From a bacterium (GTDB lineage: Bacteria; JAMCPX01), in NCBI GenBank assembly GCA_037439545.1, contig JBBIVV010000004.1, positions 14,887 through 78,886 on the forward strand: a stretch of DNA of 64,000 nt, read 5' to 3'. Under the pieces are notes generated by a model. The model was not told the DNA's origin, did no database searches, and saw only the letters and a program-made list of their open reading frames with translations. A program made the translations under genes and the position numbers. Positions 11,441-30,367 of this stretch are shown piece by piece. The number at the start of each line of letters is the position of its first letter. Position 1 is the stretch's first letter.

Positions 11441-12706
11441 CTATATTCCCCGGAACACGATACAGCAATTCGTGCCGCCGAAACCAAAAGCATTGGACAT
11501 GGCAATTTCAACTTTCTGCTTCCTCGCCTTATTGGGAACAACGTCAATATTATTAAATGCCGGATCCGGAATGTGGTTCATGGTGGGAAGGATGATCCCC
11601 TGCCGCATACCTTCTATAGTCAGGGCGCCTTCTATGGCAGCGGCTGCTCCCAGGGTATGGCCGATTTGAGATTTGTTTGACGAAATCGGAATGTGCTCAA
11701 GAGCACTGCCAAAAACTTCCCGCAGACAATTTATTTCGTTGAGATCGCCCTTTGGCGTAGAAGTGCCGTGGGTATTTACATACTGTATGTCTCCAGATTT
11801 CAGGCCGGCGTCATCAATGGCCTCCCGCATTGCCCGGGTAACCGTCGGTCCGTTCGGCCTGGTGAAATGGTAGGCATCGGATGTCCAGCCAACGCCGATA
11901 ACCTCGGCCATGGGTTTGAGTCCGTAGATCGGGATGGCTTCTTCGGATGCAAGCACCATGGCTCCCGCACCCTCTGACAGCACGAAGCCCTGGCGGTCTA
12001 CGCTGAACGGCCGGGATGCCTGTCCGGGATCATTCCACGCGCGGTCTTTCTCCGTCACTTTTATCGTTGCATTCATGTTGGCAAATCCATGGAGGATCTC
12101 CGGCATGATCGGGGTATCTACACCGCCGGCAAGGACGAAATCGCTGTCTCCGTCTCTTATCATCCTTGCGCCGATACCAATGGCATAGTTTCCTGAAGCA
12201 CATGCAGCCTGCGGGGAAAAGATGGGGCCGGTGAACCCAAGGAGCATACTTGCTTTGCCCGAGGGAAGATTGGCACAAAGGTTGGGGAGAAGGTAATTAC
12301 TGACACTGTTGGGTCCCCTTTCTTTCAAATTGTTCATGGCTGTCCTGTAGGCGTCATGACCGTTGATCGCAGAGCCCATCAGGCATGCAGTCCTTTCTTT
12401 TACGCCGTCAACCATCTCCAATCCGGCATGTGTCAAAGCATCTTTGCATACTGCCATGGTCAGGATTACATACATTGCATTCCATTCCTTGGCTTCTTTC
12501 TCACTGGAAAAGTCCAGTGCCGCAGGGTTCCAATCGGGGATTTCTCCGACCACATTTGCCAGCGTATCCGCCTTGCACCTGGTAGCGCGCCTGAACCCGG
12601 TCTCTCCCTTCACAGCCCTTTTCCATGTTTCTTTCAAAGTCTTTCCCAGCGGTGTTGCCATTGCATACCCTACGACAAAGACCCTTCTATTTTTAGGTGA
12701 TTTCAT
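11441..12706 (-). CDS. Beta-ketoacyl-ACP synthase (FabF/FabB-like KS)
   Basis: 421 aa with active-site Cys (ACASGNYAIG) and the His-His pair (THGTSTPKGD, GHTLGAAAAIEG). Confidence 0.9.
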   Translation of the reverse strand: MKSPKNRRVFVVGYAMATPLGKTLKETWKRAVKGETGFRRATRCKADTLANVVGEIPDWNPAALDFSSEKEAKEWNAMYVILTMAVCKDALTHAGLEMVDGVKERTACLMGSAINGHDAYRTAMNNLKERGPNSVSNYLLPNLCANLPSGKASMLLGFTGPIFSPQAACASGNYAIGIGARMIRDGDSDFVLAGGVDTPIMPEILHGFANMNATIKVTEKDRAWNDPGQASRPFSVDRQGFVLSEGAGAMVLASEEAIPIYGLKPMAEVIGVGWTSDAYHFTRPNGPTVTRAMREAIDDAGLKSGDIQYVNTHGTSTPKGDLNEINCLREVFGSALEHIPISSNKSQIGHTLGAAAAIEGALTIEGMRQGIILPTMNHIPDPAFNNIDVVPNKARKQKVEIAMSNAFGFGGTNCCIVFRGI

Positions 12707-12712
12707 GATTTT

Positions 12713-13963
12713 TTATCCCATTCTGTGAAAAACAACGCAAGCATTACATCCGCCGAACCCGAATGCGTTCTTTAAAACATACTCCTGCTTCAGTGTCCTT
12801 GCAGACCCGGGAACACAGTCCATGCTTATGGAAGGATCCGGGGTATAGTTGATGGTCGGAAGAATTGTGTCCGTCATCATTCCTTCCATGGCAAATATAC
12901 TCTCCAGGGCACTGGATGCGCCCATTGCGTGGCCGATCAGGGATTTGTTGGCACTCACGGGCGGGATTCTATCTCCGAAAATCTCCTTGAGTGCCCTATA
13001 CTCCACCTCATCTCCCACTTTTGTCGATGCTGCATGTGCATTGATGGCGCTGATATCCGGAGGAGCAATACCCGCATGTTTTATGGCACCATTTATGCAT
13101 TGAACAATGGTGTCCTGCCTGGGCGCGACATAGTGTTGGGCATCGGCAGTCATTGCCCATCCTGCGAGCTCCAGGGAATACCTTAATCCGTGAGCCCTCG
13201 CAAATTCAGGCGTCGATAATATGATACACCCGGCACCTTCCGATATTACGAACCCTCGCCTGTTCACGGAAAACGGCCTGCTTGCCGTGGCCGGTGCTTC
13301 AGGCGGTGCCTGCAGGGTGTTTTGATATGCCCCATTCATGGTCGCAAACCCTGCAACGATGCTTTCCACAAGCGGGAAATCCACTGCTCCGCAAATGGCC
13401 ACGTCAGCCATACCGCTCTGCAACATCATGGATCCTATGATCATGGATGTACTTCCGGTAGCACAGGCTGTGACGGTGGTCACTATAGGTCCTGTGGCAT
13501 TGGTCAGTATCGATACCTTGCCTCCCACCATGTTGACACAGGAATTAGGGTTTACATACGGTTTGGGCAATTGTCCGGATTCCACCATTATCCTGTCCGC
13601 ATCGAGAACCGCGTCAATACCGCCGATAGCAGTGCTGAATGTGGTTGCTATTCTGGGCGACAACTCCCCGGTAATTTCCAGATCGATCTTTTTCAACGCA
13701 CGATGGACTACGAGCATTCCGTATTTAAAAATCGGCGATTTCCATTGCACCATGTTTCTGGGGCTCAAAAACGGGTAAGGGGTAACGTCAACATCCGCAA
13801 CCTGTCCTGCAACCTGCACGGGAAATTTTTCTCTTAAGGGAAACCGTGTAAGGGGGCCGATACCACTGCGGCCGTGAGCAGCCTTGTTCCATTGGTCTTC
13901 AAAGTCCGTACCTAACGGAGAAACTGCATCATATCCCAGAACTACAGGCTTCACCGTATTCAT
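12713..13963 (-). CDS. Beta-ketoacyl-ACP synthase (second KS, catalytically intact)
   Basis: 416 aa with Cys motif TACATGSTS and His motifs AHAASTKVGD, GHAMGASSALES. Confidence 0.9.
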   Translation of the reverse strand: MNTVKPVVLGYDAVSPLGTDFEDQWNKAAHGRSGIGPLTRFPLREKFPVQVAGQVADVDVTPYPFLSPRNMVQWKSPIFKYGMLVVHRALKKIDLEITGELSPRIATTFSTAIGGIDAVLDADRIMVESGQLPKPYVNPNSCVNMVGGKVSILTNATGPIVTTVTACATGSTSMIIGSMMLQSGMADVAICGAVDFPLVESIVAGFATMNGAYQNTLQAPPEAPATASRPFSVNRRGFVISEGAGCIILSTPEFARAHGLRYSLELAGWAMTADAQHYVAPRQDTIVQCINGAIKHAGIAPPDISAINAHAASTKVGDEVEYRALKEIFGDRIPPVSANKSLIGHAMGASSALESIFAMEGMMTDTILPTINYTPDPSISMDCVPGSARTLKQEYVLKNAFGFGGCNACVVFHRMG

Positions 13964-14009
13964 AACTTACCCCTTTTATAAAAATTTGCGTTGAGCAAAG
14001 GTTTGCGGA

Positions 14010-15011
14010 TTACCACGGAATGAAACGGTATAATTTTGCAAACATCTCGTAAACTTCGATCCAATTCTGAAAATCCTCGGGGCTACGCATGTGCGCCCGC
14101 TTGTTGACCATAACCCAGCTCATGTGCGCGGCCCCATCTTTGCATGTGGAACAATCCCTGGTGGCAGACGTGCAGCACCGGTGCATTGTCTTGAGATCAG
14201 CCCCATACCGGATAAACCTGATAAGCCGTTTCGGCTGGGGATTGCGGGTATCCATGGGCTCGGTGACCGAAGGGCATTCGCCCCATCCCCATGCGCGGTC
14301 AAGCATTTTCCCTGTTGTGATTATTTTGTGGTAATACTTACTGGAGATTACGGTGTTATCGTATTTTTCCAGCATATAATCCATTTCCTCGCGCACGCTT
14401 TTAAGTATTTCCGGAGTCCATACGAACCCTTCCACGTCTTCATCGTTCGAAAATAACTGGAGGTGGACTTTGAGCCCGGCGTCCTTTATTTTTTTAACAA
14501 TACGTTCAATCGTGCCGGTCCCGACCTGTTTGGGTGTTATGGTGTACAGATAGTACGTGTAAGGGTCGCCCTCATAATTTTTCAGCGATATGCCGAACGT
14601 GTTCTTACCGCGCAGCACTTTCTCTTCGCTCTCGTCTCCCCACAGGGAGATTCCGACCATCATGTCCGGAAACCTGCTCCTTGGAATTTTGATCAGACCG
14701 TTTGTCGCACAATAGGTGGGAATACGCCGGTAAAACGCTTCAATCCTGTCAAGGAACAGCGTTGGTTCGCCTCCGATCAATATTGCCAGGTTCACGCCCC
14801 TTTCCTTCTCCTTATCGACAAACTCTTCCCATCTATGGATATCGGACTCTTCTTCCAGTTTGTGCTCGTCCGAAGAAAAGAAGAAACAGCCTTTACATCT
14901 CAGGTTACACTTGTTCGTCATGTCGTAGATGGAACTGCGTATGTTGAGATTGGAAATGGCGTTATACCGTTTTTTCCATTCTCCGTCTATAAGCGTACTT
15001 ACCGTGTGCAT
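14010..15011 (-). CDS. Radical SAM protein with C-terminal Cys cluster (SPASM/twitch-like)
   Basis: Cx3Cx2C motif (CNLRCKGC) near the N-terminus, glycine-rich SAM motif (ILIGGEPTL), C-terminal CCTSATRDCSTCKD cluster. Paralog of 15692-16780. Confidence 0.8.
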   Translation of the reverse strand: MHTVSTLIDGEWKKRYNAISNLNIRSSIYDMTNKCNLRCKGCFFFSSDEHKLEEESDIHRWEEFVDKEKERGVNLAILIGGEPTLFLDRIEAFYRRIPTYCATNGLIKIPRSRFPDMMVGISLWGDESEEKVLRGKNTFGISLKNYEGDPYTYYLYTITPKQVGTGTIERIVKKIKDAGLKVHLQLFSNDEDVEGFVWTPEILKSVREEMDYMLEKYDNTVISSKYYHKIITTGKMLDRAWGWGECPSVTEPMDTRNPQPKRLIRFIRYGADLKTMHRCCTSATRDCSTCKDGAAHMSWVMVNKRAHMRSPEDFQNWIEVYEMFAKLYRFIPW

Positions 15012-15027
15012 GTAATCTTTTTTTACC

Positions 15028-15618
15028 TCAGCGGGTACTTCTTATTGCATGATCAAACCCTCTGTCCTCCAATATTGCACGTACCATTTTATCGATCATC
15101 TTGTATGCCCGCTTCTCAAGAAGTCCGGAATCGGTCGTCACTGCCGGCTCCATGGTTACGGTAAAACGCTTCTGGAAGGATGCACCTTTGCCGTGCACGC
15201 TGACCATATACTGGAACTGCTGGTCCGTAATGGACTCCAGTGTGATGTCTACCTCCGGGGCATTTGACGCCTGATCCATGCTATGCACCTCAAGTCCTGC
15301 ACTCTGAAAGGCCTTTTGAATGCAATACCAGAAATACGATGTCAGACTCGGCCAGCTCTCATAGGTCATGGAGCCCTGAGGATTATAGTAATACCACATG
15401 GTCGTATTGTTCGCCTGGTTGTCTATGTTGGCGAGATATATCGACTTTCCGCGATAGCCCGGGAATGTCCTTCCGAGCTCCGGCATATAATTGTTCTGCG
15501 TGATCTCTACCTTTGCAGAGCCGCCATTGATTCCGCGCCTGCAACCTCCTGCAACTGCGATCATAAGAATGGTTATCGTACCTATCCATGCAACTACTCT
15601 GAACGTGTTATTCCGCAT
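15028..15618 (-). CDS. Lipoprotein, unknown function
   Basis: Signal peptide with lipobox (IAVAGGC); 196 aa, no recognisable domain. Confidence 0.5.
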   Translation of the reverse strand: MRNNTFRVVAWIGTITILMIAVAGGCRRGINGGSAKVEITQNNYMPELGRTFPGYRGKSIYLANIDNQANNTTMWYYYNPQGSMTYESWPSLTSYFWYCIQKAFQSAGLEVHSMDQASNAPEVDITLESITDQQFQYMVSVHGKGASFQKRFTVTMEPAVTTDSGLLEKRAYKMIDKMVRAILEDRGFDHAIRSTR

Positions 15619-15691
15619 TCTTTTCTCCTTTAGATTTAATCGATATTTTTGTTTTGAAAAAATTCCATTGTTTCACCGACGGCAGCTCGCA

Positions 15692-16780
15692 TCAAAAACC
15701 CGGGGGCTGCTGCATATGAGAACACAGGTTCTCTCCCTTCTCATATCCCTTGACCCAGACGGCAAGGTACGTATCTACATAATCAAGCCATGATTTAAAG
15801 ATGTCCGGGTCCCCTGTGTGTCTGTTGAGCTTCGAGGTAACTATAGAACTCCCTGCGGCATAATGCCTGCAATCATCGCACACCGTGTCCGGCACGCAGC
15901 ATGCAGCACTTCTGTCCCACGTAAGATCAGTCCTGTACTGCCGGAATGACCTGCCGAGTCCTAATGCAGTGGATGAATTCATGCGTGGATAGGGACATGA
16001 GAATAATCGATACAGACTGCTCCTGTGGGTATGCACCGTGGCACTATATTTTGAAAACAGTACGGCCCCCGGGTATTTTTCCAACAGATCTATCATTACA
16101 TGGCGGGCTTTATCCAGCGTTTCCGGCGTATGCAATAGATTTCCTGAGTAGTCCATCGGTGCTGAAAACATATTGAACGTAAATTTACAATCATTTGACG
16201 CCAGTATGTCTGCGACCTCATAGGCTTCATCGATTGTATTCCTGCAGAAAGTGTATACGAATACCGCACGCGGGTCACCGGCATAATTATCGATTTGTTT
16301 TTTGAGCAGGTTCCCGGCTTTTCTTACTCTGCGGCTGGTCTCATCATTACCCCATACCGAGATGTGTATCTTGTATCCGACTGATTCCGGTATACGTTTG
16401 AGTCCGTTTGTAGCTATGCACCCTAACGGGATTTCCCCATAGCACGCGTGCAGCAGATCCGGGACGAGGGACGGCTCGGCACCGGCGAGAACAACGAATG
16501 TTATGCCCCTTTCTTTTTCCTTCCGGAAGAGGTCGCGCCATGCCTGCGGGTCGAGATTTTCCCGTGCAAATTGTTTTTCTCCGTTATAGTAGTAGCATCC
16601 GTCGCACCGCATGTTGCACCTCGTGGCCATGTCATACGTGGATTCCCGTAAAAAAAAGTATTTCCTGACCTTTTCCCAACGTTCCCGCACACGTGTATCC
16701 TCAAGAAGGTCTGCGAATTTCCATTCTTTTGTCAATGGTAAAGGGTCATGAAGGCTTAATGCTGCATTATCCGATTTCAT
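15692..16780 (-). CDS. Radical SAM protein with C-terminal Cys cluster (paralog of 14010-15011)
   Basis: CNMRCDGC Cx3Cx2C motif, VLAGAEPSL, C-terminal CCVPDTVCDDCRHY cluster. Start chosen at the internal ATG (MKSDNAAL) preceded by GAGGGA; the ORF track extends to 16873. Confidence 0.8.
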   Translation of the reverse strand: MKSDNAALSLHDPLPLTKEWKFADLLEDTRVRERWEKVRKYFFLRESTYDMATRCNMRCDGCYYYNGEKQFARENLDPQAWRDLFRKEKERGITFVVLAGAEPSLVPDLLHACYGEIPLGCIATNGLKRIPESVGYKIHISVWGNDETSRRVRKAGNLLKKQIDNYAGDPRAVFVYTFCRNTIDEAYEVADILASNDCKFTFNMFSAPMDYSGNLLHTPETLDKARHVMIDLLEKYPGAVLFSKYSATVHTHRSSLYRLFSCPYPRMNSSTALGLGRSFRQYRTDLTWDRSAACCVPDTVCDDCRHYAAGSSIVTSKLNRHTGDPDIFKSWLDYVDTYLAVWVKGYEKGENLCSHMQQPPGF

Positions 16781-16935
16781 TATATTTGTGTCCCTCAAAA
16801 AAATTACACGTCTGCGGGTTATTGTCAAGACTTTGTAATTGTTGTTAATTGAACGGGTGAAACAGTTGCACACACGGTGATCGATCTGAAAATAGTGTAA
16901 AAGGATGAAGAGTTTTTCGGTTTAATACAGAGAAC

Positions 16936-18577: not shown

Positions 18578-19792
18578 ATGAAGTTTCATCTCATATTTCC
18601 AAAATGGCCGAAGTTGCCTTCGCAGACACCTTTCACCCTGCCGCCCTTAGGGATTATCACTGTGGCTGCAAGTATGCCCGATAGTGTTGAAACAAGCGTA
18701 TGCGATGAAAACGTACAACCCGTGGATTTTGACGGCAACTTTGATATTATCGGCATATCCATTATGCTGAGCTGCCAGGCACCGCGGGCTTACGAAATCG
18801 CCCATGAATTTAAAAAACGCGGCAAAACAGTCATCCTCGGGGGACTCCATGTATCGCTGCTCCCGGACGAGGCCGGCCAACACGCCGACAGTATCGTCAC
18901 CGGGGAAGTGGAGGGTCTTTTGGGGGAGATTGTCAAGGACTTCCAGGAAGGTAAGCTTAAAAAATCATACGCGGTAAAGGGTTTTCCGGATATCGCTCAG
19001 ATCCCGAACCCAAGACGGGATCTTTACGACAAAAAAAGACATTATGTGTATAAAGGATGGGAGTTGGTAGATCTTGTCCAGACGTCGCGGGGGTGCCGTT
19101 TTAATTGCTATCCATGCTGTGTGCCTTATCTGGGCGGACGCATGCACCGGATGCGTCCGATCGATCATGTCGTTTCGGACATGAAAACGTGCTCCGACCT
19201 TTTATTCATCGTCGATAATTCTCTGGAGCAGAATGTGGCATGGGAAAAGGAGGTCTTCAGGTCCATGATAGGTATGGGAAAACGCTGGGTATCGCACCCC
19301 ATCTCTCCTGTACCCGAGGTGCTGGACCTGGCACGGAAGGCAGGCTGCTGGTATATTTATCACGCCATATACACCATCTCGGACAAAATCAGAGACAGGA
19401 TAAAGATGTACCACGACTACGGCATCGGAGTGGAAGGCACCATCCTCCTCGGTATGGATGAACATACTGAAGACTTTATCAAGCGGTTCATCGATTTCCT
19501 CCTCACCATAGAGCTTGATCTCGCCGAGTTTACGGTCCTCACGCCGTTTCCAGGCACGCAGGTCTATGAACAAATGAATGCAGAAGGCAGAATATTCGAT
19601 AAAGACTGGAACCATTACAATGCCTCTACAGTGGTCATTCAGCCGCGCCGGATGAAACCGGAAACCCTCCAGAGACTGTACTATGAGGCGTGGGACAATT
19701 TTTATGCTGCCGAATCGCAGTCTGTAAAGATGAGCAGGCTCTTTTTGCAAATATACAAGGACAGGCGGAAGGGTACTCTTGAAAAGGCTTAG
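18578..19792 (+). CDS. B12-binding-domain radical SAM protein
   Basis: N-terminal cobalamin-binding-like region (IIGISIMLSCQ...KTVILGGLHVS) and radical SAM CRFNCYPC (Cx3Cx2C). Confidence 0.8.
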   Translation: MKFHLIFPKWPKLPSQTPFTLPPLGIITVAASMPDSVETSVCDENVQPVDFDGNFDIIGISIMLSCQAPRAYEIAHEFKKRGKTVILGGLHVSLLPDEAGQHADSIVTGEVEGLLGEIVKDFQEGKLKKSYAVKGFPDIAQIPNPRRDLYDKKRHYVYKGWELVDLVQTSRGCRFNCYPCCVPYLGGRMHRMRPIDHVVSDMKTCSDLLFIVDNSLEQNVAWEKEVFRSMIGMGKRWVSHPISPVPEVLDLARKAGCWYIYHAIYTISDKIRDRIKMYHDYGIGVEGTILLGMDEHTEDFIKRFIDFLLTIELDLAEFTVLTPFPGTQVYEQMNAEGRIFDKDWNHYNASTVVIQPRRMKPETLQRLYYEAWDNFYAAESQSVKMSRLFLQIYKDRRKGTLEKA

Positions 19793-19902
19793 GACGAGAC
19801 GTCCTCCCCCTGGCAAAGCTTTATTGTGCCGGCTGCTTGACAATGGAGTATATATTTTTTATAAAAATGCACAGAAGAAAACAGCAATAACGAGGAGATA
19901 GT

Positions 19903-20193
19903 ATGGTAACACAAACAAAAAAATTGACCGTCCAGGATATTCAGTTGAAGGTCTCGGAAATATTTATCAATGAACTTAAGCTTGAAGATGTGACCCCTGA
20001 GACATTGGATCCGGAACTGCACTTGATGGAGGAGCTGGGAATCGACAGCATGGATCTCATAACAGTAGTGTTAGTTCTGAAGGATGAATTCGCAGTCAAT
20101 ATTGATGAGGCTGATTATCCAAAACTTACCAATATCCGGCTTATCGCTGAGTATATTAAGGAGAAAATGGAAAATGCAAGAAGCGCCCGTTGA
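19903..20193 (+). CDS. Acyl carrier protein 1
   Basis: 96 aa with phosphopantetheine attachment motif LGIDSMDL. Confidence 0.8.
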   Translation: MVTQTKKLTVQDIQLKVSEIFINELKLEDVTPETLDPELHLMEELGIDSMDLITVVLVLKDEFAVNIDEADYPKLTNIRLIAEYIKEKMENARSAR

Positions 20194-20464
20194 CAAATTG
20201 CCCGTTGACAAATTGATAGATGAACTGAAAAGAAAGGTTCTCGATATCCTCAATATTCAGGATATCGGCCTGAGCGACATAGACACCAATTCTCCCCTGG
20301 TGGGGAGTAATTTAGGCATTGATTCTATCGATATCCTGGAACTTGTCACTGTCATCGAACATGATTACGGGGTAAAAATAGATAATAAAGAGTTGGGCGA
20401 GAAGGTATTCGCCTCATTTGCCTCTCTGGCACAATATATAGCAGACAATAGGACTCTCATTTGA
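20174..20464 (+). CDS. Acyl carrier protein 2 (overlaps ACP1 by 20 nt, different frame)
   Basis: Start at ATG 20174 (MQEAPVDK...) after AAGGAG. Motif LGIDSIDILE. The ORF track begins further upstream at 20084. Confidence 0.75.
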   Translation: MQEAPVDKLPVDKLIDELKRKVLDILNIQDIGLSDIDTNSPLVGSNLGIDSIDILELVTVIEHDYGVKIDNKELGEKVFASFASLAQYIADNRTLI

Positions 20465-20465
20465 T

Positions 20466-22637
20466 GTGTCCATGATGACACCTGAAGGCATTTTCATCAC
20501 AGGTCTCGGCATCATTAGTCCTCTGGGAAAAGGCCGGCTCTCAACAGTCAGTTCGTTAAAAAATTCATTCTGCGGCATTCACAACGTCAATGTGTTCACG
20601 GTAGCTCCGGACCAGCTCATGCCTGTTGCGGATGTTTCCATCCCTTTCGAAGTTGAGCCCGGAGTCCCGAGGACCCATGCACTTGCACTCGCAGCAGCAC
20701 GCGATGCAATGGAAGGCAAAAACTGTATACCGGACGCCGTGATTATGGGAGTTACAACCGGAGGAATGCCGAAAAGCGAGGTGTTGCTTAAATCAAAGGT
20801 CAGGATCCCTCAGGAGTATACCTATCATGGGGCAGGTACTATCGCCACTTATTTAGCAGAGCATTTCTCGTGTCAGGGACCGGCATTAACCATATCGACC
20901 GCGTGTTCCAGCGGCACGGCAGCCATTATAATAGCACGGGAACTGATCCGGCATGGAAAGGCAGAAAAGGTGCTCGTCGGTGGAGCAGATGCGCTCTGTC
21001 TGTTTACCTATTTCGGGTTTTTTTCGTTGCAGTTAATGGATGCCAGGGGTGCGCGTCCTCTGGACAAGGATCGGGCAGGCATGTCACTGGGTGAAGGTGC
21101 TGCCGTACTCTTTATCGAAAAGTCACAGAGTCCGCCGCCAGGCTCTATCGCACAGATTCTTGGCGGTGGTATTTCCTGCGATGCCTATCATCCGACCGCG
21201 CCGCATCCTGCGGGTGACGGTGCGGTGAAAGCCATGCGCGGGGCCATTGCAGACGCAGGCATCTCGGTCGGCGATATTGAATATGTAAACCTCCACGGGA
21301 CAGCGACACAGGATAACGATGCTTCGGAGGCTATTGCCATCCGGACATTGTTCGGTGACCGGTTCCCCGCACTATCTTCCACCAAAGGTATGACGGGTCA
21401 TTCTCTCGGCGCATCCGGTGCAGTCGAATGTGCCCTCTGTTCATTGTCCGTGTCAGAAGGAATAATCCCGGGGACAATAGGCTGCACGAACCTTGATACA
21501 AAACTCGGAATACCGGCTGTGCTGCACCCGGAAAATCATCCGGTAAGAATTGCCCTCTCCAATTCTTTCGGTTTCGGCGGCAATAATGCCTCTGTGGTAA
21601 TCGGTTCTGCGGACCTACGGCCGCCTGAGCGGCCGCTTATGCATGTCCGGAGCCTGAATGTTATCGGACTTGCTTGTTTAACCGGTGCCGGAGGTGCGGA
21701 TGCCTCTTTCCAAAAATTTTCACAGGGCGATTCTCTCTCCGGGACACTGAGCGATGAAGAGATATCCAGAGACCTTCCCCAGAGACAAATCAGGCGCCTC
21801 AAGAGACTTCCCCGTATGGCACTTGCCCTGGCAAACGCAGCCAGAAAGGATGCCGGTGATAAATTTCACCCTTCCTCGATTTTTTTCGGTACAGGATGGG
21901 GCCCCTTATCCGAGACCTATGACTTTCTTACAAAACTTTTCGGATCCGACATGAGATTTTTCAGCCCGACGGATTTTATCAATTCCGTGCACAATGCACC
22001 GGCGGGCCAGGTGGCCATGGAGTTTAAGGCAATGGGAACGAACCTTACGGCAACAGGCGGGGATTATTCCTTTGAGCAGGCACTTTTGATGGCAAGCCTT
22101 CTGGCCTCGGAAAAGGAAGAGCTCATGCTCTTCGGGGCAGACGAGATGCATCCGGAACTGTCCCCCCTCTTTGATCCCTCGGTCCCCGGTGAGAGAATTC
22201 CCTCTGACGGCGGCGGGGCACTTATGGCAGTGGCAACGACCTCTCCCTCGGGTCCTGCGATAACACCGGTTGTATATCGAATGGCTGCGAAGGATTCCGG
22301 GTGGGCGATAATGAATGACCTCAAGGTTACCGACTTCCATAAACATTATGCTGCTATTTTTGCAGGGATCCCTTCAGCGTATGAAAAAATGGCCGGAGAT
22401 CAGTTAACGGATTTTCTTTCCTCTTCAAAATTTAATGGGCCTGTTATTCACTACCGGAAGTACACAGGTCAATATGCAACATCATCTGCTGTTGCTGCTG
22501 CTCTGGCAGTCAAAATCATACAGCAGGGTTTTCTTCCTGCGGGTTTGACGCACGCCGACGAAGTTTCTCTGGGAGAGAAAGGGATTCTGGTCATGGGTTT
22601 TGGTCCTTATTGCACAGCCGTCGACATCCGTAACTGA
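20466..22637 (+). CDS. Fused ketosynthase - chain-length-factor-like didomain protein (KS-CLF)
   Basis: The N-terminal ~380 aa form an active KS (TACSSGTAAI, HGTATQDND, GHSLGASG). The C-terminal ~340 aa form a second KS fold (IRRLKRLPRMALALANAARKDAG...) in which the active Cys position reads TATGGDYS, with no Cys. Confidence 0.8.
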   Translation: MSMMTPEGIFITGLGIISPLGKGRLSTVSSLKNSFCGIHNVNVFTVAPDQLMPVADVSIPFEVEPGVPRTHALALAAARDAMEGKNCIPDAVIMGVTTGGMPKSEVLLKSKVRIPQEYTYHGAGTIATYLAEHFSCQGPALTISTACSSGTAAIIIARELIRHGKAEKVLVGGADALCLFTYFGFFSLQLMDARGARPLDKDRAGMSLGEGAAVLFIEKSQSPPPGSIAQILGGGISCDAYHPTAPHPAGDGAVKAMRGAIADAGISVGDIEYVNLHGTATQDNDASEAIAIRTLFGDRFPALSSTKGMTGHSLGASGAVECALCSLSVSEGIIPGTIGCTNLDTKLGIPAVLHPENHPVRIALSNSFGFGGNNASVVIGSADLRPPERPLMHVRSLNVIGLACLTGAGGADASFQKFSQGDSLSGTLSDEEISRDLPQRQIRRLKRLPRMALALANAARKDAGDKFHPSSIFFGTGWGPLSETYDFLTKLFGSDMRFFSPTDFINSVHNAPAGQVAMEFKAMGTNLTATGGDYSFEQALLMASLLASEKEELMLFGADEMHPELSPLFDPSVPGERIPSDGGGALMAVATTSPSGPAITPVVYRMAAKDSGWAIMNDLKVTDFHKHYAAIFAGIPSAYEKMAGDQLTDFLSSSKFNGPVIHYRKYTGQYATSSAVAAALAVKIIQQGFLPAGLTHADEVSLGEKGILVMGFGPYCTAVDIRN

Positions 22638-22644
22638 GGCAGTT

Positions 22645-24120
22645 ATGCGTTTAACAGATCATATAATTATTATAGGTTCGGGTATCGGAGGAATGACCGC
22701 TGCAATCGTTCTTGCAAAACTGGGATACCGTGTGACTGTCGTCGAAAAAAACAAACGCCCCGGCGGCCTGATGAGGAGTTATATTCGGGAAGGCGTCGAA
22801 TGCGAAGTCGGGCTCCACTATGTCGGCGCAATGGACACAGGCCAGCCTTTGCGGCAGATCTTCGATCTCCTCGGTATATCGGGGCGTATACCTGCCGTAC
22901 GCATGGGAGAAGACGGGATTGTCGATAAATATATTCTACCCGGGATGGTGTTCGACTTCCCCCCCGGCATTGATATGTTCGAAGAGAACCTTCATAAGGC
23001 TTTCCCTGAAGAAGGCCGCCGGATAGCGGAGATTGCCGCCCTAATCCGCAATGCAATTGTACGCTTTTCCGCTTTGTCAATTTTTTTCGGGGAAAAAGAA
23101 GAGTTTGATCTTTCATGGGAACTACAGCCTGTGGAGAATTACTTTAATAAACTCGGATGTTCCCTGAAATTGCGCAGTATCCTTTCTGTTCCGCTGGCTT
23201 GGCTTGGTGTGGGACCCGGGGAGTGCCCCATGTACCTATGGAGTTCTTCGATATCATCATACCTGATGTCCTCCTGGCGCCTGCCGCAGGGAGGTGCACA
23301 TTTGGCGGATACACTTGCAGAAAGGCTGCGGGGGCTTGGCGGGGAAATCATTTGTAATGACGGAGTCTCCAGGATAACCGTACGTGATCATGCAGTACAG
23401 GGAGTGGTCCTGAAATCCGGGAGAGAATTGGCTTCTTCAGTGATTATAGCGGCAATTCATCCAAAATTAATGCTCCGAATGCTTCCCGCTGATTCTTATA
23501 AACCTTCCTTTAAAAACAGGATCTCATCGCTTCAGGAGACTCCGGGAATATTTGCCGCGCACATCGCAATTCCCGAACAAGAGGTTTCTTACAAACCGTA
23601 TAATATCTTTGCCTTTGATGCGGACAATACCGTGCACGGCGGAGTGACATTTTTTACTATGAAGAAATCTTCCAAGCCCGGGTGGAACTGTATTTCCATC
23701 CTTGAAGAAAGTCCTTATGAAAAGTGGCAGTCCTGGGAAAACACCACAAGGAAACACCGCCCTCAGGATTACAGGGATGCCAAGGATCGGGAGACCGGTA
23801 TTCTTTTGAATAAAGCTTTGAAAATCTTCGGTCATATGCAGGGGGCGCAGGTCGTGGATTCTTTTACCCCGTTATCGTTCTGTGACTGGATGGATAGCCC
23901 GCAGGGGGGTGCCTATGGTGTGAGTCATTCTGTCAGACAGAAGTTTAAAACTGCGGCACTGCACAGGACGCCTCTGTCGGGATTGCACGTGGTGGGACAG
24001 AGCGTTTTTGCCCCGGGTATACTGGGCACTGCTTTGGGAACGCTCCGGGTCATTGCTTCTCTTGTCGGATACGATACTCTGCATCAAAAATTTATTGACT
24101 CACGGGAAGAGGGGATTTAA
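22645..24120 (+). CDS. FAD-dependent oxidoreductase, phytoene-desaturase (CrtI)/amine-oxidase-like
   Basis: Dinucleotide-binding IIIIGSGIGGMTAAIVLAKLGYRVTVVEKN plus the long CrtI-like body. Start at ATG 22645, 8 nt after the KS-CLF stop. Confidence 0.75.
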   Translation: MRLTDHIIIIGSGIGGMTAAIVLAKLGYRVTVVEKNKRPGGLMRSYIREGVECEVGLHYVGAMDTGQPLRQIFDLLGISGRIPAVRMGEDGIVDKYILPGMVFDFPPGIDMFEENLHKAFPEEGRRIAEIAALIRNAIVRFSALSIFFGEKEEFDLSWELQPVENYFNKLGCSLKLRSILSVPLAWLGVGPGECPMYLWSSSISSYLMSSWRLPQGGAHLADTLAERLRGLGGEIICNDGVSRITVRDHAVQGVVLKSGRELASSVIIAAIHPKLMLRMLPADSYKPSFKNRISSLQETPGIFAAHIAIPEQEVSYKPYNIFAFDADNTVHGGVTFFTMKKSSKPGWNCISILEESPYEKWQSWENTTRKHRPQDYRDAKDRETGILLNKALKIFGHMQGAQVVDSFTPLSFCDWMDSPQGGAYGVSHSVRQKFKTAALHRTPLSGLHVVGQSVFAPGILGTALGTLRVIASLVGYDTLHQKFIDSREEGI

Positions 24121-24137: not shown

Positions 24138-25691
24138 ATGAAGAAAAAACATATACACAATAAATCCGTTCAGAAGCCTGTCGTCATCGGAGAAGGTGAT
24201 GTCACGCTCGTTCAGGTAGCAGATATCGCACGCGGCGTGTCCCGCGTTGCGATCAGTTCTCAAAAGAATTTTATCGACAAGATACGGCTGTCTCAAAAAA
24301 CTCTGCAGCGTGTTCTCGATGCCGACGAGCCGATATACGGCGTAACGACCGGATACGGTGCGGCATGCGGCAACAGGATTAAGAAGCACAATACGGAAGA
24401 ACTTGGCAGCAATCTCATAAAATATCACGGCTGCGGCACCGGTGCTCCTTTAGGCATAGAGGAGACGCGTGCGTCTATCGTGGCCAGACTGGTATGCTTT
24501 GCGCGAGGATACTCGGGTGTTTCCGTCAATCTGATGCAGGCCATGGCGGACTTGCTCAATAAAGGTATTACTCCTATCGTCCCGTCTATGGGATCTGTCG
24601 GCGCATCAGGGGACCTCACCCCGATGTCGTATATTGCAGCATGTCTGTCCGGAGACAGGGATGTCCTGTATAAAGGGCGCAGGATGAGCTCAAAAAAAGC
24701 CTTGTCTCAGGCCGGACTATCCCCCTACCGTTTTCTCCCGAAAGAACCTCTCGGTATGATCAACGGGACATCGGTAATGACAGGGATTGCCGTAATCGCT
24801 CTCAAGAAGAGCAGGGTTATCGTTGATATGGCAATGGCGGCAACCGCACTCGCACTCCATGCCCTCATGGGACATGAAAGGCATTTTCATCCGACCGTGG
24901 TCAATTCAAAGCCTCATCCGGGACAGCAACTGGCAGGGGAACGGCTGCGGAATATTTTATCTTCAATAGATCGGCCGCCGGAATCGGACAAGCAGGATCA
25001 TTTTCAGGACCCGTATTCCATTCGCTGCGCTCCCCAGATCATCGGCGTTGCGTACGACGCCCTTGATTGGGCCGAGGAATGGGTCCAGAGAGAGGTAAAC
25101 AGTTCCAACGACAATCCGCTTGCAGACGGCGACCATAAAGAGGTTTTCATGGGCGGTAATTTTTATGGCGGACATATAGCGTTTGCCATGGATGCACTGA
25201 AGAGTGCCCTTGCATCGGTTGCCGATATGATAGACCGTCAGATGGCGCTTTTGGTGGACCAGCGGTACAACCGCGGGCTTCCGGCAAACCTCGTGAAAGT
25301 GAAAGGGGGCAAACAACTGCTCAATCACGGGTTCAAAGGCATGCAGATAACTGCGTCAGCTTTAGCCGCAGAGGCTTTGAAAAACACCATGCCTGCTGCA
25401 TCCTTTTCAAGGTCAACCGAATCTCACAATCAGGACAAGGTGAGTATGGGTACCATTTCAGCGAGGGATGCTGCATGGCAATGCGAATTGGTGGGCCGTG
25501 TTGTCGCCATACATCTCATGGCTGCGGTCCAGGCATGCGAATTGAGAGGCGGCTTGAACGGAAGGCCTGTGCTTGCTTCGCTCGCAAAAGAAGTTCGGAA
25601 AAAAGTCAGGGCAACGGTTTTCGATCGTCCGATGGATAAGGACATTGAAGTTCTTGCAGATGCACTGCCGGAGCTGGTGCGTTCCCTATGA
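24138..25691 (+). CDS. MIO-dependent aromatic amino acid ammonia-lyase (HAL/PAL/TAL family)
   Basis: 517 aa with Ala-Ser-Gly MIO triad in GASGDLTPMSYIAA and conserved YGVTTGYG, NGTS, NDNPL motifs. Confidence 0.85.
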   Translation: MKKKHIHNKSVQKPVVIGEGDVTLVQVADIARGVSRVAISSQKNFIDKIRLSQKTLQRVLDADEPIYGVTTGYGAACGNRIKKHNTEELGSNLIKYHGCGTGAPLGIEETRASIVARLVCFARGYSGVSVNLMQAMADLLNKGITPIVPSMGSVGASGDLTPMSYIAACLSGDRDVLYKGRRMSSKKALSQAGLSPYRFLPKEPLGMINGTSVMTGIAVIALKKSRVIVDMAMAATALALHALMGHERHFHPTVVNSKPHPGQQLAGERLRNILSSIDRPPESDKQDHFQDPYSIRCAPQIIGVAYDALDWAEEWVQREVNSSNDNPLADGDHKEVFMGGNFYGGHIAFAMDALKSALASVADMIDRQMALLVDQRYNRGLPANLVKVKGGKQLLNHGFKGMQITASALAAEALKNTMPAASFSRSTESHNQDKVSMGTISARDAAWQCELVGRVVAIHLMAAVQACELRGGLNGRPVLASLAKEVRKKVRATVFDRPMDKDIEVLADALPELVRSL

Positions 25692-26113
25692 CAGAAGCTG
25701 CTCTGCGGACATACTCCGTCAGACTCCGTGTGCCGTTCCACCATGTCGATCCAATGCAGGTCGTGTGGCATGGACATTACTTCGAATATTTTGAGGCAGC
25801 AAGGGACGGGCTGTTTGAAAGCCTGAACATCAATCTCGAAAGTTTCTATCCGAGCGATGGATACATCTTTCCCGTGATCCGCGGTTCGATAAAATTTATC
25901 CGCCCCCTCCGCTATAAAGATGTGTTTGTATGTACCGCGCGGGCTGCAGATGCAAAACGGAAAATAGTAATCGAGTATGAAATCAAATTGGAGTCCACCG
26001 ATACCCTGTGCACCAGGGGCAGTACGGAACAGATTGTTTTAAAGATGCCGGAAGCACAAATCGAATATGAAATCCCGAAGCTAATCCGCGAGGCAATACG
26101 TCCACACTTATGA
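25688..26113 (+). CDS. 4HBT-family hot-dog thioesterase
   Basis: 141 aa with VPFHHVDPMQVVWHGHYFEYFE. ATGA overlap with the lyase stop. Confidence 0.75.
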   Translation: MTEAALRTYSVRLRVPFHHVDPMQVVWHGHYFEYFEAARDGLFESLNINLESFYPSDGYIFPVIRGSIKFIRPLRYKDVFVCTARAADAKRKIVIEYEIKLESTDTLCTRGSTEQIVLKMPEAQIEYEIPKLIREAIRPHL

Positions 26114-27825
26114 CCGGTGACTTTTTTGATGCACTGAGGGCCGGCATTGAAAGAATTGCTGCATGGTCGGATCTTTTGGATAGTATCAATGTGTTCCCCA
26201 TTGCAGACGGAGATACAGGACGCAACCTGCTCATCAGCCTCTTACCCTTAAAATCATCTCTACGCGATCGCTCTTGTCTCATTGAAAAGCTTTTTCTTTC
26301 TGCCAGAGGCAATTCCGGCAATATTGCCGCGCATTTTTTTTCCGGATTCCTGTCTTCCGGGGACATTGCACGGCTTCCGGAAGCCGTCAGGGCAGGCAGA
26401 AGGCTTGCGTGGCAGGCTGTTGCCGATCCGCAGCCGGGAACCATGCTCAGTGTGTTTGACGAGCTGGAGATCTCCCTCGGTGAATCTTCTCTGGACGATC
26501 GCGGAGCATGGGTTTCCGGTGTAGTGAAGAGATTGGAAAAATCCGTACTGGAAACGACACGGACACTGCCGGTATTAAAGAGCACGGATGTCGTTGATTC
26601 AGGGGCACTGGGCATGTTTATGTTCTTCGATGCCTTTCTGAATGCCCTGTACACAAGAGCTCCCCAATGTGCGCCGCTCACTGCTGTATTCAGGGATCAT
26701 CTTGCCCTCAAAGGACCCTGGACAGGCACCGGGGAATCCGGCGTCTGTATCGATGCGGTCGTGAAATTAAAAAACGGCAGAAAAGGACCGCTCGGGGATC
26801 TGTCGCGGCTCGGAGAAAGTGTGGTTGCCCATGAACTTGGAGGACAGGTTAAGATACATTTTCATACAAAAGACCAGTCTGCTGTCAGGGAGGAACTGTC
26901 CCGTATGGGCAGCATCGTCCAGTGGGTATCCGATGATCTGGGGGTCCAGACCAGGACATTTTCCCCGGAACCCGTCCATCAGGCGATCCATGTCGTAACG
27001 GACGCTGCAGGCAGTCTCACGCGCGACGATGCCAGACAGCTCCATATAACTCTTTTGGACAGCTATATTGCCGTGGGCACGACTGATGCTCCGGAGACCC
27101 ATGTCCGGGGTTCTGAAATGTACCGTGCCATGAACAAGGGTATTAAGGTGACCACGTCCCAGGCATCCGTACTCGAGCGTCATCAGCATTACGAAAAAAT
27201 ATTGAGCCTGTACAATACGGCTCTCTACATATGCGTGGGCTCTGTTTTTACAGGGAACTACCGCACGGTCATGGATTGGAAGAAAGGTCATGACCCGGAA
27301 GACCGTCTCAAAGTCATCGACACAGGGGCTGCTTCAGGAAAACTGGGCCTCATTGCTCTCGCAACGGCACGGTATGCCCGGAGTGCTCCAACCGGGAAAG
27401 ATGTCGTGGATTTTGCCGTGCGTTCCGTAGCCGCTTGTGAGGAGTACATCTTTTTAGACACGCTGCATTTCCTCGCTGCAGGCGGGCGGCTGTCAAAAAC
27501 CAGCGCACTATTCGGAGACATGCTGCGAATGAAACCCGTGGTCAGCCCCTTTGCAGAGGGCGCAAAAAAAGTGGCAGTGGTGCGGAATAAAAAAGAACAG
27601 GCCGCTTTTGCTTTGGAAAAACTCGAAAAGGCCTTTCATGCCGGGGACCGTCCGCTTATTATGCTGGAATATACGGACAACGAAGAATGGATAAAGAACG
27701 ACATCACTGCTTTGATAAGCAGCAGGTTCCCGCATGCAGAGATAATCATACAGGCTTTTTCCCTTACTTCGGGCGCACATATGGGCCCCGGAACATGGGG
27801 CATTGCCTTCCTCCCCGCTCTCTGA
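26110..27825 (+). CDS. DAK2-domain kinase, FakA/YloV-like (fatty-acid-kinase A family), with DegV/Dak1-like (EDD-fold) C-terminal domain
   Basis: N-terminal Dak2 motif FPIADGDTGRNL. C-terminal VVTDAAGSLTRDDARQLHITLLDSYIAVG resembles DegV/Dak1_2 EDD-fold domains. 571 aa matches YloV length. Confidence 0.7.
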   Translation: MTGDFFDALRAGIERIAAWSDLLDSINVFPIADGDTGRNLLISLLPLKSSLRDRSCLIEKLFLSARGNSGNIAAHFFSGFLSSGDIARLPEAVRAGRRLAWQAVADPQPGTMLSVFDELEISLGESSLDDRGAWVSGVVKRLEKSVLETTRTLPVLKSTDVVDSGALGMFMFFDAFLNALYTRAPQCAPLTAVFRDHLALKGPWTGTGESGVCIDAVVKLKNGRKGPLGDLSRLGESVVAHELGGQVKIHFHTKDQSAVREELSRMGSIVQWVSDDLGVQTRTFSPEPVHQAIHVVTDAAGSLTRDDARQLHITLLDSYIAVGTTDAPETHVRGSEMYRAMNKGIKVTTSQASVLERHQHYEKILSLYNTALYICVGSVFTGNYRTVMDWKKGHDPEDRLKVIDTGAASGKLGLIALATARYARSAPTGKDVVDFAVRSVAACEEYIFLDTLHFLAAGGRLSKTSALFGDMLRMKPVVSPFAEGAKKVAVVRNKKEQAAFALEKLEKAFHAGDRPLIMLEYTDNEEWIKNDITALISSRFPHAEIIIQAFSLTSGAHMGPGTWGIAFLPAL

Positions 27826-28212: not shown

Positions 28213-29019
28213 ATGAGCACAACAACCCCTTCCTGCAGAATACCGCTGTGGCACGTGGTCGTACGGGGCCTGAAAGGCCTGTACATGTTTCTCATGTTTA
28301 TCGTGTTCGGCGGTGCAATACTCTTCGGTCATTTGTTCACGCCGTTCCTGCTTTTTCGCGACAGGCTCGCCGGACATGACCGGCAGTATAACCAGAGGTT
28401 CTACAGGGGGTTTGTTGTGTTATGGCTCTGGTTCATGGAAAAGGGAAGACTGCTGAAGGCCCTCCCCTATAAAGGTGAAATCATGGACGGGCCATGTGTG
28501 GTGATAGCAAATCACCCGGGCCTCTTCGATATTCTCATTTTGATCCGCGATGTTCCGAAGATGTCACTCATTGCAAAACAGTCCCTCAGGACAGGCCTCG
28601 GAATGGGTCATCTGTTCAGACTTGCAGGGTGGGTCTTTGCCTCAGGCAAATCGGATACTTCTATGGTACTTGATACCTCGAACAAGGCGCTGGAACAATT
28701 GAGGGACGGCTATAAGTTTATGCTTTTCCCGGAAGGCACACGGTCTCCCAAGGGTGGACTACACCGCTTCAAGGCCGGTGCTTTCAAGCTCGCACGGGCC
28801 GGACACGTGCCTGTCCAGCCTGTATTGATCTGGAACACGCCGCCGTTCCTGCCGCATGAAGATCACTGGTACTATCCGCCCTATGAAACATCGATCGTCC
28901 GGCTCGAGTTTTTGAAACCACTTCCCCTGCCCGGGGAAAAGGAGGAACGAAGAATAGCTATAGAGACGGAAAACCTGTTCCGCACCGCACTGGGCATGAA
29001 TCGTACGGCTGAAGCGTAG
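28213..29019 (+). CDS. 1-acyl-sn-glycerol-3-phosphate acyltransferase family (PlsC/LPLAT)
   Basis: N-terminal TM, HX4D motif (ANHPGLFD), FPEGTRS motif. Preceded by a 387-bp AT-rich non-coding gap with a TATAAT ~10 nt upstream. Confidence 0.8.
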   Translation: MSTTTPSCRIPLWHVVVRGLKGLYMFLMFIVFGGAILFGHLFTPFLLFRDRLAGHDRQYNQRFYRGFVVLWLWFMEKGRLLKALPYKGEIMDGPCVVIANHPGLFDILILIRDVPKMSLIAKQSLRTGLGMGHLFRLAGWVFASGKSDTSMVLDTSNKALEQLRDGYKFMLFPEGTRSPKGGLHRFKAGAFKLARAGHVPVQPVLIWNTPPFLPHEDHWYYPPYETSIVRLEFLKPLPLPGEKEERRIAIETENLFRTALGMNRTAEA

Positions 29020-29115: not shown

Positions 29116-30348
29116 ATGTCTGAAGGACGAAGGGTTGTAGTTACCGGCATCGGGTTCCGCTCTCCCATAGGAAACACGTTGAAAGCCATGAAGGAATCTC
29201 TGCAAAGCGGACGCGGCGGCATCAGAGTAATGCCGGAATGGAACAATGTCGATCATCTGCGCACCAGAGTTGCGGGTGTGTGCGGTGACGTTGACGATAA
29301 AGTGATCCCGCGCAACTACAGGCGGAGCATGGGCAGGGTTTCTGTCCTTGCCGCCATAGCAGCCTTGGAAGCGATTGCCGACTCGGGCATCAGCGAGCAA
29401 GAGATCGGTTCGCCTCTATGCGGGGTCTCATTCGGATCGACTGCCGGCAGTTCCGAATCCATGGAAGGCTTCGTTAAGGACGTTTTTACCAGTCGAAGCC
29501 TCAAGGGATTGCAATCATCCGTATACCTGCAGTTCATGAGTCATACCTGTGCTGCAAATCTCGCAATGATGTTTCATACCAAAGGGCCTGTCGTTGCCTC
29601 GTGCACGGCATGCGTGTCCGGGTCGCAGGGAGTGGGCTTCGGATACGAGGCGATAAAAGCAGGCCGTGCCGATATAATGCTTGCAGGCGGTGCAGAGGAA
29701 ATGCACTTTATGGATGCGGGGATTTTCGATATTATGAGAGCAACTTCGACGAAATATAATGATCGCCCTGACTCCACGCCCCGTCCCTTTGATGTCGACC
29801 GGGACGGACTGGTGGTCGGAGAGGGAGCAGGATGTCTTGTTCTCGAGGAATATGATCACGCGAGATTCAGGGGAGCACGCATCTACAGTGAAGTCGTCGG
29901 TTACGGGACGAACTGCGACGGCTCTCATCTGACAAATCCGAGCGCCGAGGGAATGGCGGGAGCCATGAAGATCGCATTGAAAGATGCGGGCATGTCTGCG
30001 TCTGACATTGGTCATGTCAACGCACACGCCACGGCAACATCTGCCGGAGATACGGCTGAGGCAGCCGCCACCCACGAGATATTCGGGACATCGGTGCAGG
30101 TTAGCGCGCTCAAAGGTTTCACCGGACATACGCTCGGGGCATGCGGGGCGATTGAATCCATAGAAACCATTTTGATGATCAATGAGCATTTTATAGCTGC
30201 GTCAAAAAATCTTGAAACCCCTGATCCTGCACTGCCTCCACTGAACCATGTGATAGGTGGTGCACGGGACTTTTCCTTCGATATAGGGATGAACAATAAT
30301 TTTGCATTCGGAGGGATTAACACATCCCTTATATTCCGCAGGGTATGA
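29116..30348 (+). CDS. Beta-ketoacyl-ACP synthase (FabF/FabB-like)
   Basis: 410 aa with CTACVSGSQG, HATATSAGD, GHTLGACG. Confidence 0.9.
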   Translation: MSEGRRVVVTGIGFRSPIGNTLKAMKESLQSGRGGIRVMPEWNNVDHLRTRVAGVCGDVDDKVIPRNYRRSMGRVSVLAAIAALEAIADSGISEQEIGSPLCGVSFGSTAGSSESMEGFVKDVFTSRSLKGLQSSVYLQFMSHTCAANLAMMFHTKGPVVASCTACVSGSQGVGFGYEAIKAGRADIMLAGGAEEMHFMDAGIFDIMRATSTKYNDRPDSTPRPFDVDRDGLVVGEGAGCLVLEEYDHARFRGARIYSEVVGYGTNCDGSHLTNPSAEGMAGAMKIALKDAGMSASDIGHVNAHATATSAGDTAEAAATHEIFGTSVQVSALKGFTGHTLGACGAIESIETILMINEHFIAASKNLETPDPALPPLNHVIGGARDFSFDIGMNNNFAFGGINTSLIFRRV

Positions 30349-30367
30349 TAGTGCCGCAGACGGAAAC

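Follow-up and report, generated by a model that had tools for sequence, protein, structure and literature searches.

Condensing enzymes made up of a ketosynthase (KS) and a chain-length factor (CLF) are hard to express and to pair correctly. A 2025 review in the Journal of Biological Chemistry counts only three KS/CLF structures (PMC12664062). The one precedent for KS and CLF on a single chain is part of a megasynthase, namely the didomain of PfaC from the polyunsaturated fatty acid (PUFA) synthase of Moritella marina (6RIW), the crystal structure of which is credited to Santin et al. (2020), as cited in PMC9702510. In the present study, we describe a gene at 20472-22637 of a stretch of 64,000 nucleotides (nt; hereafter the window) from a bacterium of the GTDB lineage JAMCPX01 (assembly GCA_037439545.1, contig JBBIVV010000004.1, positions 14,887 to 78,886), which very likely encodes a condensing enzyme with KS and CLF naturally fused into one free-standing protein, as part of an aryl polyene (APE)/flexirubin-like type II system.

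In the APE systems of Xenorhabdus doucetiae (6QSP) and Acinetobacter baumannii, the KS ApeO and the CLF ApeC are two polypeptides, and the solved ApeC retains only the first thiolase lobe (211-240 amino acids (aa); PMC8358021, PMC12664062). An adjacent pair of acyl carrier proteins (ACPs), ApeE and ApeF, is a known hallmark of APE clusters, and in A. baumannii ApeE is the carrier of the aryl starter and ApeF has been proposed as the malonyl carrier (PMC12624758). Discrete KSs with an inactive KS-like partner, associated with reduced or polyene chains, are also found in the ishigamide (Iga11/Iga12, 6KXD) and cispentacin (AmcF/AmcG, 7F28) systems. Lastly, a KS/CLF-like heterodimer, amxFabF2/amxFabFmut, belongs to the putative ladderane Cluster I of anammox bacteria, which also encodes an ACP, a B12-binding radical S-adenosylmethionine (SAM) enzyme and a phytoene-dehydrogenase homologue (bioRxiv 10.64898/2026.05.19.726425). 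The PDB entries 9S5H and 9S5I very probably represent this anammox complex, since there are two entries with chains of 413 and 412 aa, the Cys and His residues lie at the numbering of the preprint plus five, and chain C has a Val at the Cys position.

The open reading frame (ORF) of the fused gene runs without interruption from a GTG at 20466 to 22637 on the + strand (723 aa); the database representative of the protein, an identical entry, starts at the ATG 20472 (721 aa), from which all of its residues are numbered here. Residues 1-378 (20472-21605, + strand) form a KS domain, in which the Pfam ketoacyl-synthase N and C domains PF00109 and PF02801, each matched at about 1e-28 and over its cutoff, span residues 68-340. 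The catalytic residues lie within the motifs STACSSG (Cys145, 20904-20906), NLHGT (His275, 21294-21296) and TGHSLG (His310, 21399-21401) and are, together with Lys305 (21384-21386), invariant in an alignment of 50 fused homologues of 48-75% identity. The best NCBIfam model for this half is NF006618/PRK09185, the ApeO-type KS of APE clusters (307.8 bits, cutoff 407), and the AmcF and AmcB family models are matched with scores below their cutoffs. In the PDB, 9s5h_B (4.4e-56), ApeO (6qsp_A, 4.1e-55) and 7f28_B all rank ahead of FabF enzymes. The KS domain is followed by an inter-domain linker of about 16 residues (379-394; 21606-21653, + strand), which is variable and, by the composition of the alignment columns, rich in Pro and Arg, and the length of which is conserved among the homologues.

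The C-terminal half (residues 395-721 plus the stop codon; 21654-22637, + strand) is a CLF-like (KS-beta) domain. Its sole KS-family match in Pfam is PF13723 (Ketoacyl-synt_2, E 2.7e-11), the family that contains ApeC, at residues 436-566 and with 43.9 bits versus a cutoff of 25; neither PF00109 nor PF02801 is matched. Searched alone against the PDB, this half retrieves 9s5h_C (2.4e-5), ApeC (6qsp_B, 3.6e-4) and, weakly, 7f28_A (E 0.37). The motif TATGGDYSF is located in the register of the active-site Cys, with Asp531 (22062-22064) in place of the Cys. In the profile-profile alignment (hhalign) of the two halves, with the register GPALTISTACSSG / GTNLTATGGDYSF, Asp531 is paired with Cys145 and a Tyr with His275; toward its C-terminal end, this alignment is too weak to locate a counterpart of His310. 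The alignments of the C-terminal half to ApeC and 9s5h_C yield the same Asp531/Cys register. Within the stretch that aligns to the catalytic region of KSs, there is no invariant or near-invariant Cys or His. Across the 50 fused homologues, SVHNAP (with His507), GGDYSFEQ, Glu558, His560 and Asp579-Gly-Gly are invariant or nearly so. As judged from these alignments, the C-terminal half is devoid of the catalytic Cys and of at least the first His of the triad, and it is predicted to be inactive as a KS because Asp531 replaces the Cys and a Tyr replaces His275. This agrees with a preliminary description of the locus, which had postulated a 723-aa protein with a Cys-His-His triad in its N-terminal KS and with TATGGDYS, hence no Cys, at the active-site position of its C-terminal half: the ORF could be read directly, the triad is present and invariant, and the alignments, with matches to ApeC (6qsp_B) and PF13723, point to a lost Cys rather than to a retained Cys/His-His triad.

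For the whole chain, AlphaFold2 run on the family alignment predicts a compact structure (predicted local distance difference test (pLDDT) 93.4, predicted template modelling score (pTM) 0.95) with a local dip in pLDDT to about 83 at the linker. The top Foldseek match of the full-length model in the PDB is the PfaC KS-CLF didomain 6RIW (E 2.4e-42, TMq 0.82), which covers both halves; the next matches, the ishigamide KS Iga11 and then many FabF structures, cover only the N-terminal half. In the model, the two halves are predicted to pack as an intramolecular KS-type pseudo-heterodimer. Modelled alone (pLDDT 89), the C-terminal half of about 327 aa adopts a trimmed yet two-lobed thiolase fold, which matches KS chains over their whole length as well as the CLFs AntE and Iga12 (TMt of about 0.65) and thereby differs from the single lobe of the solved ApeC. 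The view that the KS-alpha/KS-beta pair of type II polyketide synthase/APE systems is encoded here as one chain is supported, with the qualification that the second domain, with its two lobes, is no simple ApeC. Held against a type II KS-alpha/KS-beta pair, the protein has an active-type KS and a Cys-less partner, the pseudodimer is predicted, and the two components are not separate polypeptides.

The fused gene is preceded by two ACP genes on the same strand. ACP1 (19903-20193, + strand; 96 aa; PF00550, E 3.6e-8) has the ribosome-binding site GAGGAG 5' of its start, carries the phosphopantetheine Ser49 (20047-20049) in the motif GIDSM and is a fatty acid synthase (FAS)-like ACP, the best NCBIfam and PDB matches of which are generic (FAS) or mitochondrial ACPs. 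ACP2 (20174-20464, + strand; 96 aa; PF00550, E 5.4e-8) starts at an internal ATG with AAGGAG 10 nt 5' of it, carries Ser51 (20324-20326) in the motif GIDSI and is of the APE type (ApeE-like): its closest PDB match is 9LS6, the starter ACP ApeE of A. baumannii (2.1e-13), and it reaches 67.6 bits with NF006617/PRK09184, the ACP subfamily of APE clusters, which is slightly under the cutoff of 70. In the program-made ORF list, ACP2 starts at 20084 (126 aa); the 96-aa reading is favoured because a 74%-identical relative (L018) keeps an equivalent pair of 95 and 96 aa, with an overlap of 17 nt. The overlap of the two genes in the window is exactly 20 nt (20174-20193) and the frames differ, so that the ORF list and the direct reading of the junctions are in accord with what had first been noted. 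ACP1, ACP2 and the KS-CLF gene occupy three different frames, and the ACP2 stop is separated from the KS-CLF ATG by 7 nt; the 20-nt overlap and the 7-nt gap suggest translational coupling. As the two ACPs are only 27% identical, they do not stem from a recent duplication.

Two adjacent discrete ACPs, both with PF00550 and one of them ApeE-like, are a feature of APE clusters, and the tandem ACPs are in themselves ordinary and hold no novelty. They are not universal in the fused family either: L018 has two, and four further relatives (L022, L017, L020 and L021) have one directly 5' of the fused gene and more elsewhere in the cluster. In L017, the ACP directly 5' of the fused gene is ApeE-like and passes the subfamily cutoff (75.7 bits versus 70). 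By analogy with A. baumannii, ACP2 is likely the chain carrier and ACP1 the malonyl/extender carrier, i.e. in an ApeF-like role.

From these data we infer enzyme activity, the roles of the ACPs, the starter, the product and the benefit of the fusion as follows. Cys145 would be acylated by the growing chain delivered on the ApeE-like ACP2, and His275 and His310 would serve in the decarboxylation of a malonyl unit, probably carried on the FAS-like ACP1, and in its condensation with the chain. The C-terminal half, with its Asp531, would be non-condensing and would complete the dimer interface and the acyl tunnel, so that it would set the chain length. The fusion would enforce 1:1 pairing and would preclude KS homodimers as well as mispairing with the three other KSs that are encoded nearby. 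In the subclade of the window, the starter is probably an aryl-acrylic acid provided by the adjacent ammonia-lyase, and the beta-carbon would be processed by a FabG/FlxB-like ketoreductase (KR).

Several points weigh against the assignment as a condensing KS-CLF. The role of the family is deduced from sequence and from a model, the enzyme activity is putative throughout and the intramolecular dimer is a prediction. The KS half scores under the curated ApeO-type cutoff (307.8 versus 407 bits) and is therefore no orthologue by the NCBI criterion. Without ApeI/ApeP and ApeH, the classical polyene cycle is incomplete beside the enzyme, where the only dehydratase (DH) is a fusion with a phosphopantetheinyl transferase (PPTase) at 9166-10755. 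Finally, the conserved polar residues of the C-terminal half (His507, Asp531, Tyr532, Glu558, His560 and Asp579) may exceed what would be needed for shaping a tunnel.

The last point leads to a different reading, namely that the C-terminal half acts as a further catalytic module, which might decarboxylate malonyl-ACP for priming or process acyl groups in some other way, and that the fusion couples two reactions. The residues just named are fully or almost fully conserved in homologues of 48-75% identity, and the anammox heterodimer requires both of its subunits for the decarboxylation of malonyl-ACP (bioRxiv 10.64898/2026.05.19.726425), both of which would fit such a module. However, unfused proteins of the ApeC type, whose only described role is that of a CLF (PMC8358021), likewise carry the SVHN and GD motifs, the C-terminal half lacks the canonical Cys and at least the first triad His, and the ammonia-lyase in the operon suggests an aryl starter, with which decarboxylative priming would be unneeded. 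We hence consider a catalytic C-terminal half unlikely and favour the non-condensing, CLF-like role. That both halves condense, as in a tandem of two active KSs, is very improbable and was rejected: both halves do share the thiolase/KS fold, but an Asp at the Cys position, a Tyr at that of the first His, the missing invariant or near-invariant Cys or His in the aligned catalytic stretch and PF13723 as the only family match of the second half all argue against a second condensing site.

The fusion itself is genuine and common in uncultured anaerobic bacteria. In a word-indexed search of protein clusters, drawn from independently assembled NCBI, JGI, ENA and Logan sources, the fused architecture was present in 120/120 clusters among the matches listed (48-100% identity), with 695-743 aa and the same order of Pfam domains. 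The source names include Desulfobacterales, Desulfobacteraceae, Thermodesulfobacteriota, 'Deltaproteobacteria' and Spirochaetes/Spirochaetota, next to other metagenome-assembled genomes (MAGs), and the proteins carry generic annotations at their sources, for example 'beta-ketoacyl-ACP synthase family protein', with no curated model that names the family. An exhaustive HMMER scan with the C-terminal half gave 97 clusters (formed at 50% identity) at E<=1e-30. Among the proteins listed, 46 or more are complete fusions of >=650 aa in which the match begins around residue 385-400, and most of the remaining matches resemble fragments at contig ends. In four relatives that were re-read in their own contigs, the fused genes are intact, and a distant fused variant of 805 aa (28% identical) is encoded at 9992-12409 of L011, a locus of a Thermodesulfobacteriota MAG. 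The joining of two genes by a sequencing error, a possibility raised in the preliminary description, or more generally by a frameshift, an assembly error or a pseudogenising mutation, could draw on the unfused same-order neighbours in other phyla, where a 4-nt overlap or a 3-nt gap means that one indel could fuse a KS gene to an ApeC-like CLF gene, but has next to no probability and was rejected in view of the 120/120 independent clusters listed that are fused at about 720 aa, the intact re-read loci, the conserved length of the linker and the confident AlphaFold2 prediction over the whole chain.

Unfused pairs, for which other genomes were to be checked, do exist. In two Nitrospirota loci (L003 and L006) and one gammaproteobacterial locus (L005), the KS (395-416 aa) and the CLF (264-275 aa) are encoded by two neighbouring genes, the KS gene again being first; the two genes overlap by 4 or 28 nt or lie 3 nt apart. 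Like the C-terminal half, these three CLFs have SPT.F.SVHN and an Asp in place of the Cys; they align with that half only over its first ~170 residues. The genome scan that yielded them used a single sequence and gave mainly distant, unfused relatives, so that it is no census of the fused clade. In the exhaustive scan, further matches at E ~1e-20 are free-standing proteins of 312-392 aa (for example P0232, P0233 and P0235), which span the two lobes. The CLFs of this family hence occur in one-lobed (ApeC), in two-lobed free-standing and in fused form. Most likely, the stop codon between neighbouring apeO-like and apeC-like genes was lost, which gave rise to the fusion. Two further proteins, P0138 (324 aa) and P0141 (335 aa), share 44-45% identity with the C-terminal half and begin exactly where it begins; they could stem from genuine gene fission or from truncated calls.

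When compared with the described systems, the locus resembles that of ApeO-ApeC in several respects: the N-terminal half is nearest to the ApeO-type family and the C-terminal half belongs to PF13723, the KS precedes the CLF, an ApeE-like ACP is encoded before them, and a second ACP, an ApeR-like KS, a KR and a LolA-like protein are found nearby. Apart from the single polypeptide and the second lobe, it differs from APE clusters in that ApeI/ApeP and ApeH are lacking among the scanned ORFs of the window, whereas radical-SAM and B12-binding radical-SAM enzymes, a CrtD-like enzyme and a Dak2-DegV protein are present, which are not among the genes named in PMC8358021 and PMC12624758. With the PfaC didomain, which is its best structural match, the fused protein has the single chain and the leading KS in common. 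PfaC, however, is part of a multidomain megasynthase with DH domains, whereas the protein described here is free-standing, ends after the CLF at 721 aa and is accompanied by discrete ACPs; moreover, the identity in the structural alignment is 16%, and the PUFA-synthase model TIGR02813 is matched with only 46.6 bits versus a cutoff of 1010. The ishigamide and cispentacin pairs are similar in that a discrete KS is joined by an inactive KS-like partner, with Iga11 as the second-best structural match, to the N-terminal half, and with Iga12, together with AntE, matching the C-terminal half across both lobes. They differ in being separate polypeptides of actinobacterial clusters, and their relation to the C-terminal half is weak in sequence (E 0.37 for 7f28_A).

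The gene directly upstream of the ACPs (18578-19792, + strand) encodes a B12-binding radical-SAM enzyme (PF02310, PF04055), which scores 59.7 bits with TIGR04072 ('rSAM_ladder_B12'; cutoff 360); the position upstream of the fusion is likewise filled by a B12-binding radical-SAM enzyme in L022. Directly downstream, a phytoene-desaturase/CrtD-like oxidoreductase dependent on flavin adenine dinucleotide (22645-24120, + strand; PF01593, PF13450) matches the CrtD and CrtI families below their cutoffs and is kept 3' of the fusion in L018 and L022. The program-made ORF list places the start of this flavoenzyme at TTG 22600, with an overlap of 38 nt with the KS-CLF gene; more likely is a start at ATG 22645 (MRLTDHIIIIGSG...), which lies 8 nt downstream of the KS-CLF stop, an arrangement shared by L018. 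The next gene (24138-25691, + strand) encodes an aromatic amino-acid ammonia-lyase (PF00221, E 5.5e-155), which is matched by histidine ammonia-lyase, tyrosine ammonia-lyase (BagA, FlxA) and aminomutase models, all below their cutoffs, and which probably supplies an aryl-acrylate starter such as p-coumarate. It is present only in the window and in the 74%-identical L018, the otherwise collinear L022 (62% identity) being without it, and an aryl starter is therefore probably a feature of the subclade.

The operon continues with a 4HBT thioesterase (25688-26113), a Dak2-DegV (FakA/FakB-like) fusion of 571 aa (26110-27825) and a PlsC-type acyltransferase (28213-29019), which together would move the product into lipid. 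It was observed that the second of these proteins unites a Dak2/FakA-like kinase domain and a DegV/FakB-like fatty-acid-binding domain on one chain between the thioesterase and PlsC, and that this block is kept in L018 and L022; it could serve in release, phosphorylation and acyl transfer into lipids or, alternatively, in starter activation, replacing the ApeH ligase. Further downstream, a second, free-standing KS is ApeR-like (29116-30348, + strand; NF006587/PRK09116, 467.7 bits versus a cutoff of 470) and is followed by an ORF of 147 aa without a family match (30302-30745). A role of this ORF as dehydratase was rejected, as it encodes a conserved small protein, probably membrane-bound, which is 55% identical to its counterpart at 18042-18515 of L022 and always follows the ApeR-like KS. 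A LolA2-like protein (31393-32214; LolA2_flexi, E 3.3e-26) and the FabG/FlxB-like KR (32221-32952; NF004200, 316.9 bits with a cutoff of 273; FlxB_rubin_SDR, 314 bits with a cutoff of 340) are encoded on the - strand.

On the other side of the fused gene, a protein of 529 aa (9166-10755, - strand) combines a polyketide synthase-type DH (PF21089, PF14765) with a C-terminal PPTase (PF01648); the equivalent DH of L020 (294 aa) lacks the PPTase part. It is followed by a block on the - strand (11441-16873) with two radical-SAM enzymes, a 196-aa ORF without a family match, two FabF-like KSs and a second 4HBT thioesterase, which in L020, and partly in L017 and L021, follows the fused KS-CLF. That the KS genes at 11441-13963 form a second KS/CLF pair was rejected, as both keep the catalytic Cys and His and look like active FabF-type enzymes. 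No ApeI/ApeP-type dehydratase (PF22817, PF22818) was found in any ORF scanned in the 9-36 kb region of the window, and no AMP-binding protein, and hence no ApeH-type AMP-ligase, among the scanned ORFs of the cluster. Because ApeI/ApeP and an ApeH-type ligase are missing from the window, we regard the pathway as APE-like and the locus as no canonical APE cluster. Dehydratases of PF22817 and PF22818 do adjoin the fused gene in L017, L020 and L021, where the recurring block consists of ACP and KS/CLF with ApeP- and ApeI-like dehydratases, KR, LolA, B12-binding and other radical-SAM enzymes and FabF-like KSs; in L018 and L022, it is the block of ACP, KS/CLF, flavoenzyme, (lyase), 4HBT, Dak2/DegV and PlsC that recurs. 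At some distance, the segment 44001-48000 has a G+C content of 0.35-0.37 versus 0.45-0.52 elsewhere in the window and may be foreign or island-like.

In this context, the anammox ladderane cluster deserves attention. The chains 9s5h_B and 9s5h_C are the best PDB sequence matches for the two halves of the fused protein, and the region 18578-24120 of the window (cf. 10001-13519 of L017) resembles Cluster I in that it combines a B12-binding radical-SAM enzyme, ACP(s), KS/CLF and a phytoene-desaturase-like flavoenzyme. The B12-binding radical-SAM enzyme beside the fused gene of L017 passes TIGR04072 (394.3 bits versus 360), and that of the window, with its 59.7 bits, does not. The anammox subunits differ from the protein described here in that they are encoded by separate genes with the inactive subunit upstream, whereas the fused chain begins with the KS, and in that the inactive subunit is of full size (412 aa), with the Cys replaced by Val or Thr and not, as here, by Asp. 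The link to the anammox cluster is thus a lead and no conclusion. One could speculate, tentatively and with considerable doubt, that the fused KS-CLF is the signature of a widespread lipid pathway of anaerobes (Desulfobacterota, Spirochaetota and others) that bridges APE/flexirubin biosynthesis and the anammox 'ladderane' Cluster I. If this were true, an APE-type core would build an unsaturated chain, in some members from an aryl primer, B12-binding and other radical-SAM enzymes together with the phytoene-desaturase-like enzymes would remodel it by methylation, cyclisation or desaturation, and the kinase/acyltransferase route would lead it into membrane lipids. The easily expressed single-chain enzymes would then constitute a tractable model for the unsolved anammox chemistry.

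In the open-access literature searched, we found no account of a KS-CLF that is both fused and free-standing in any APE-like type II system, the only fused form being the didomain of PUFA synthases. Overall, the fused KS-CLF is real, widespread and uncharacterised, and it is conceptually anticipated, so that the surprise lies less in the fusion than in the unexplored family of clusters that it marks. As a natural, free-standing fusion, which would impose obligatory 1:1 pairing on one soluble chain, the protein could provide a scaffold for structures, for chain-length engineering and for probing the 'inactive' half. The fused gene itself marks a large, unstudied family of lipid clusters in anaerobes, which shares parts with the unexplained ladderane cluster of anammox bacteria.

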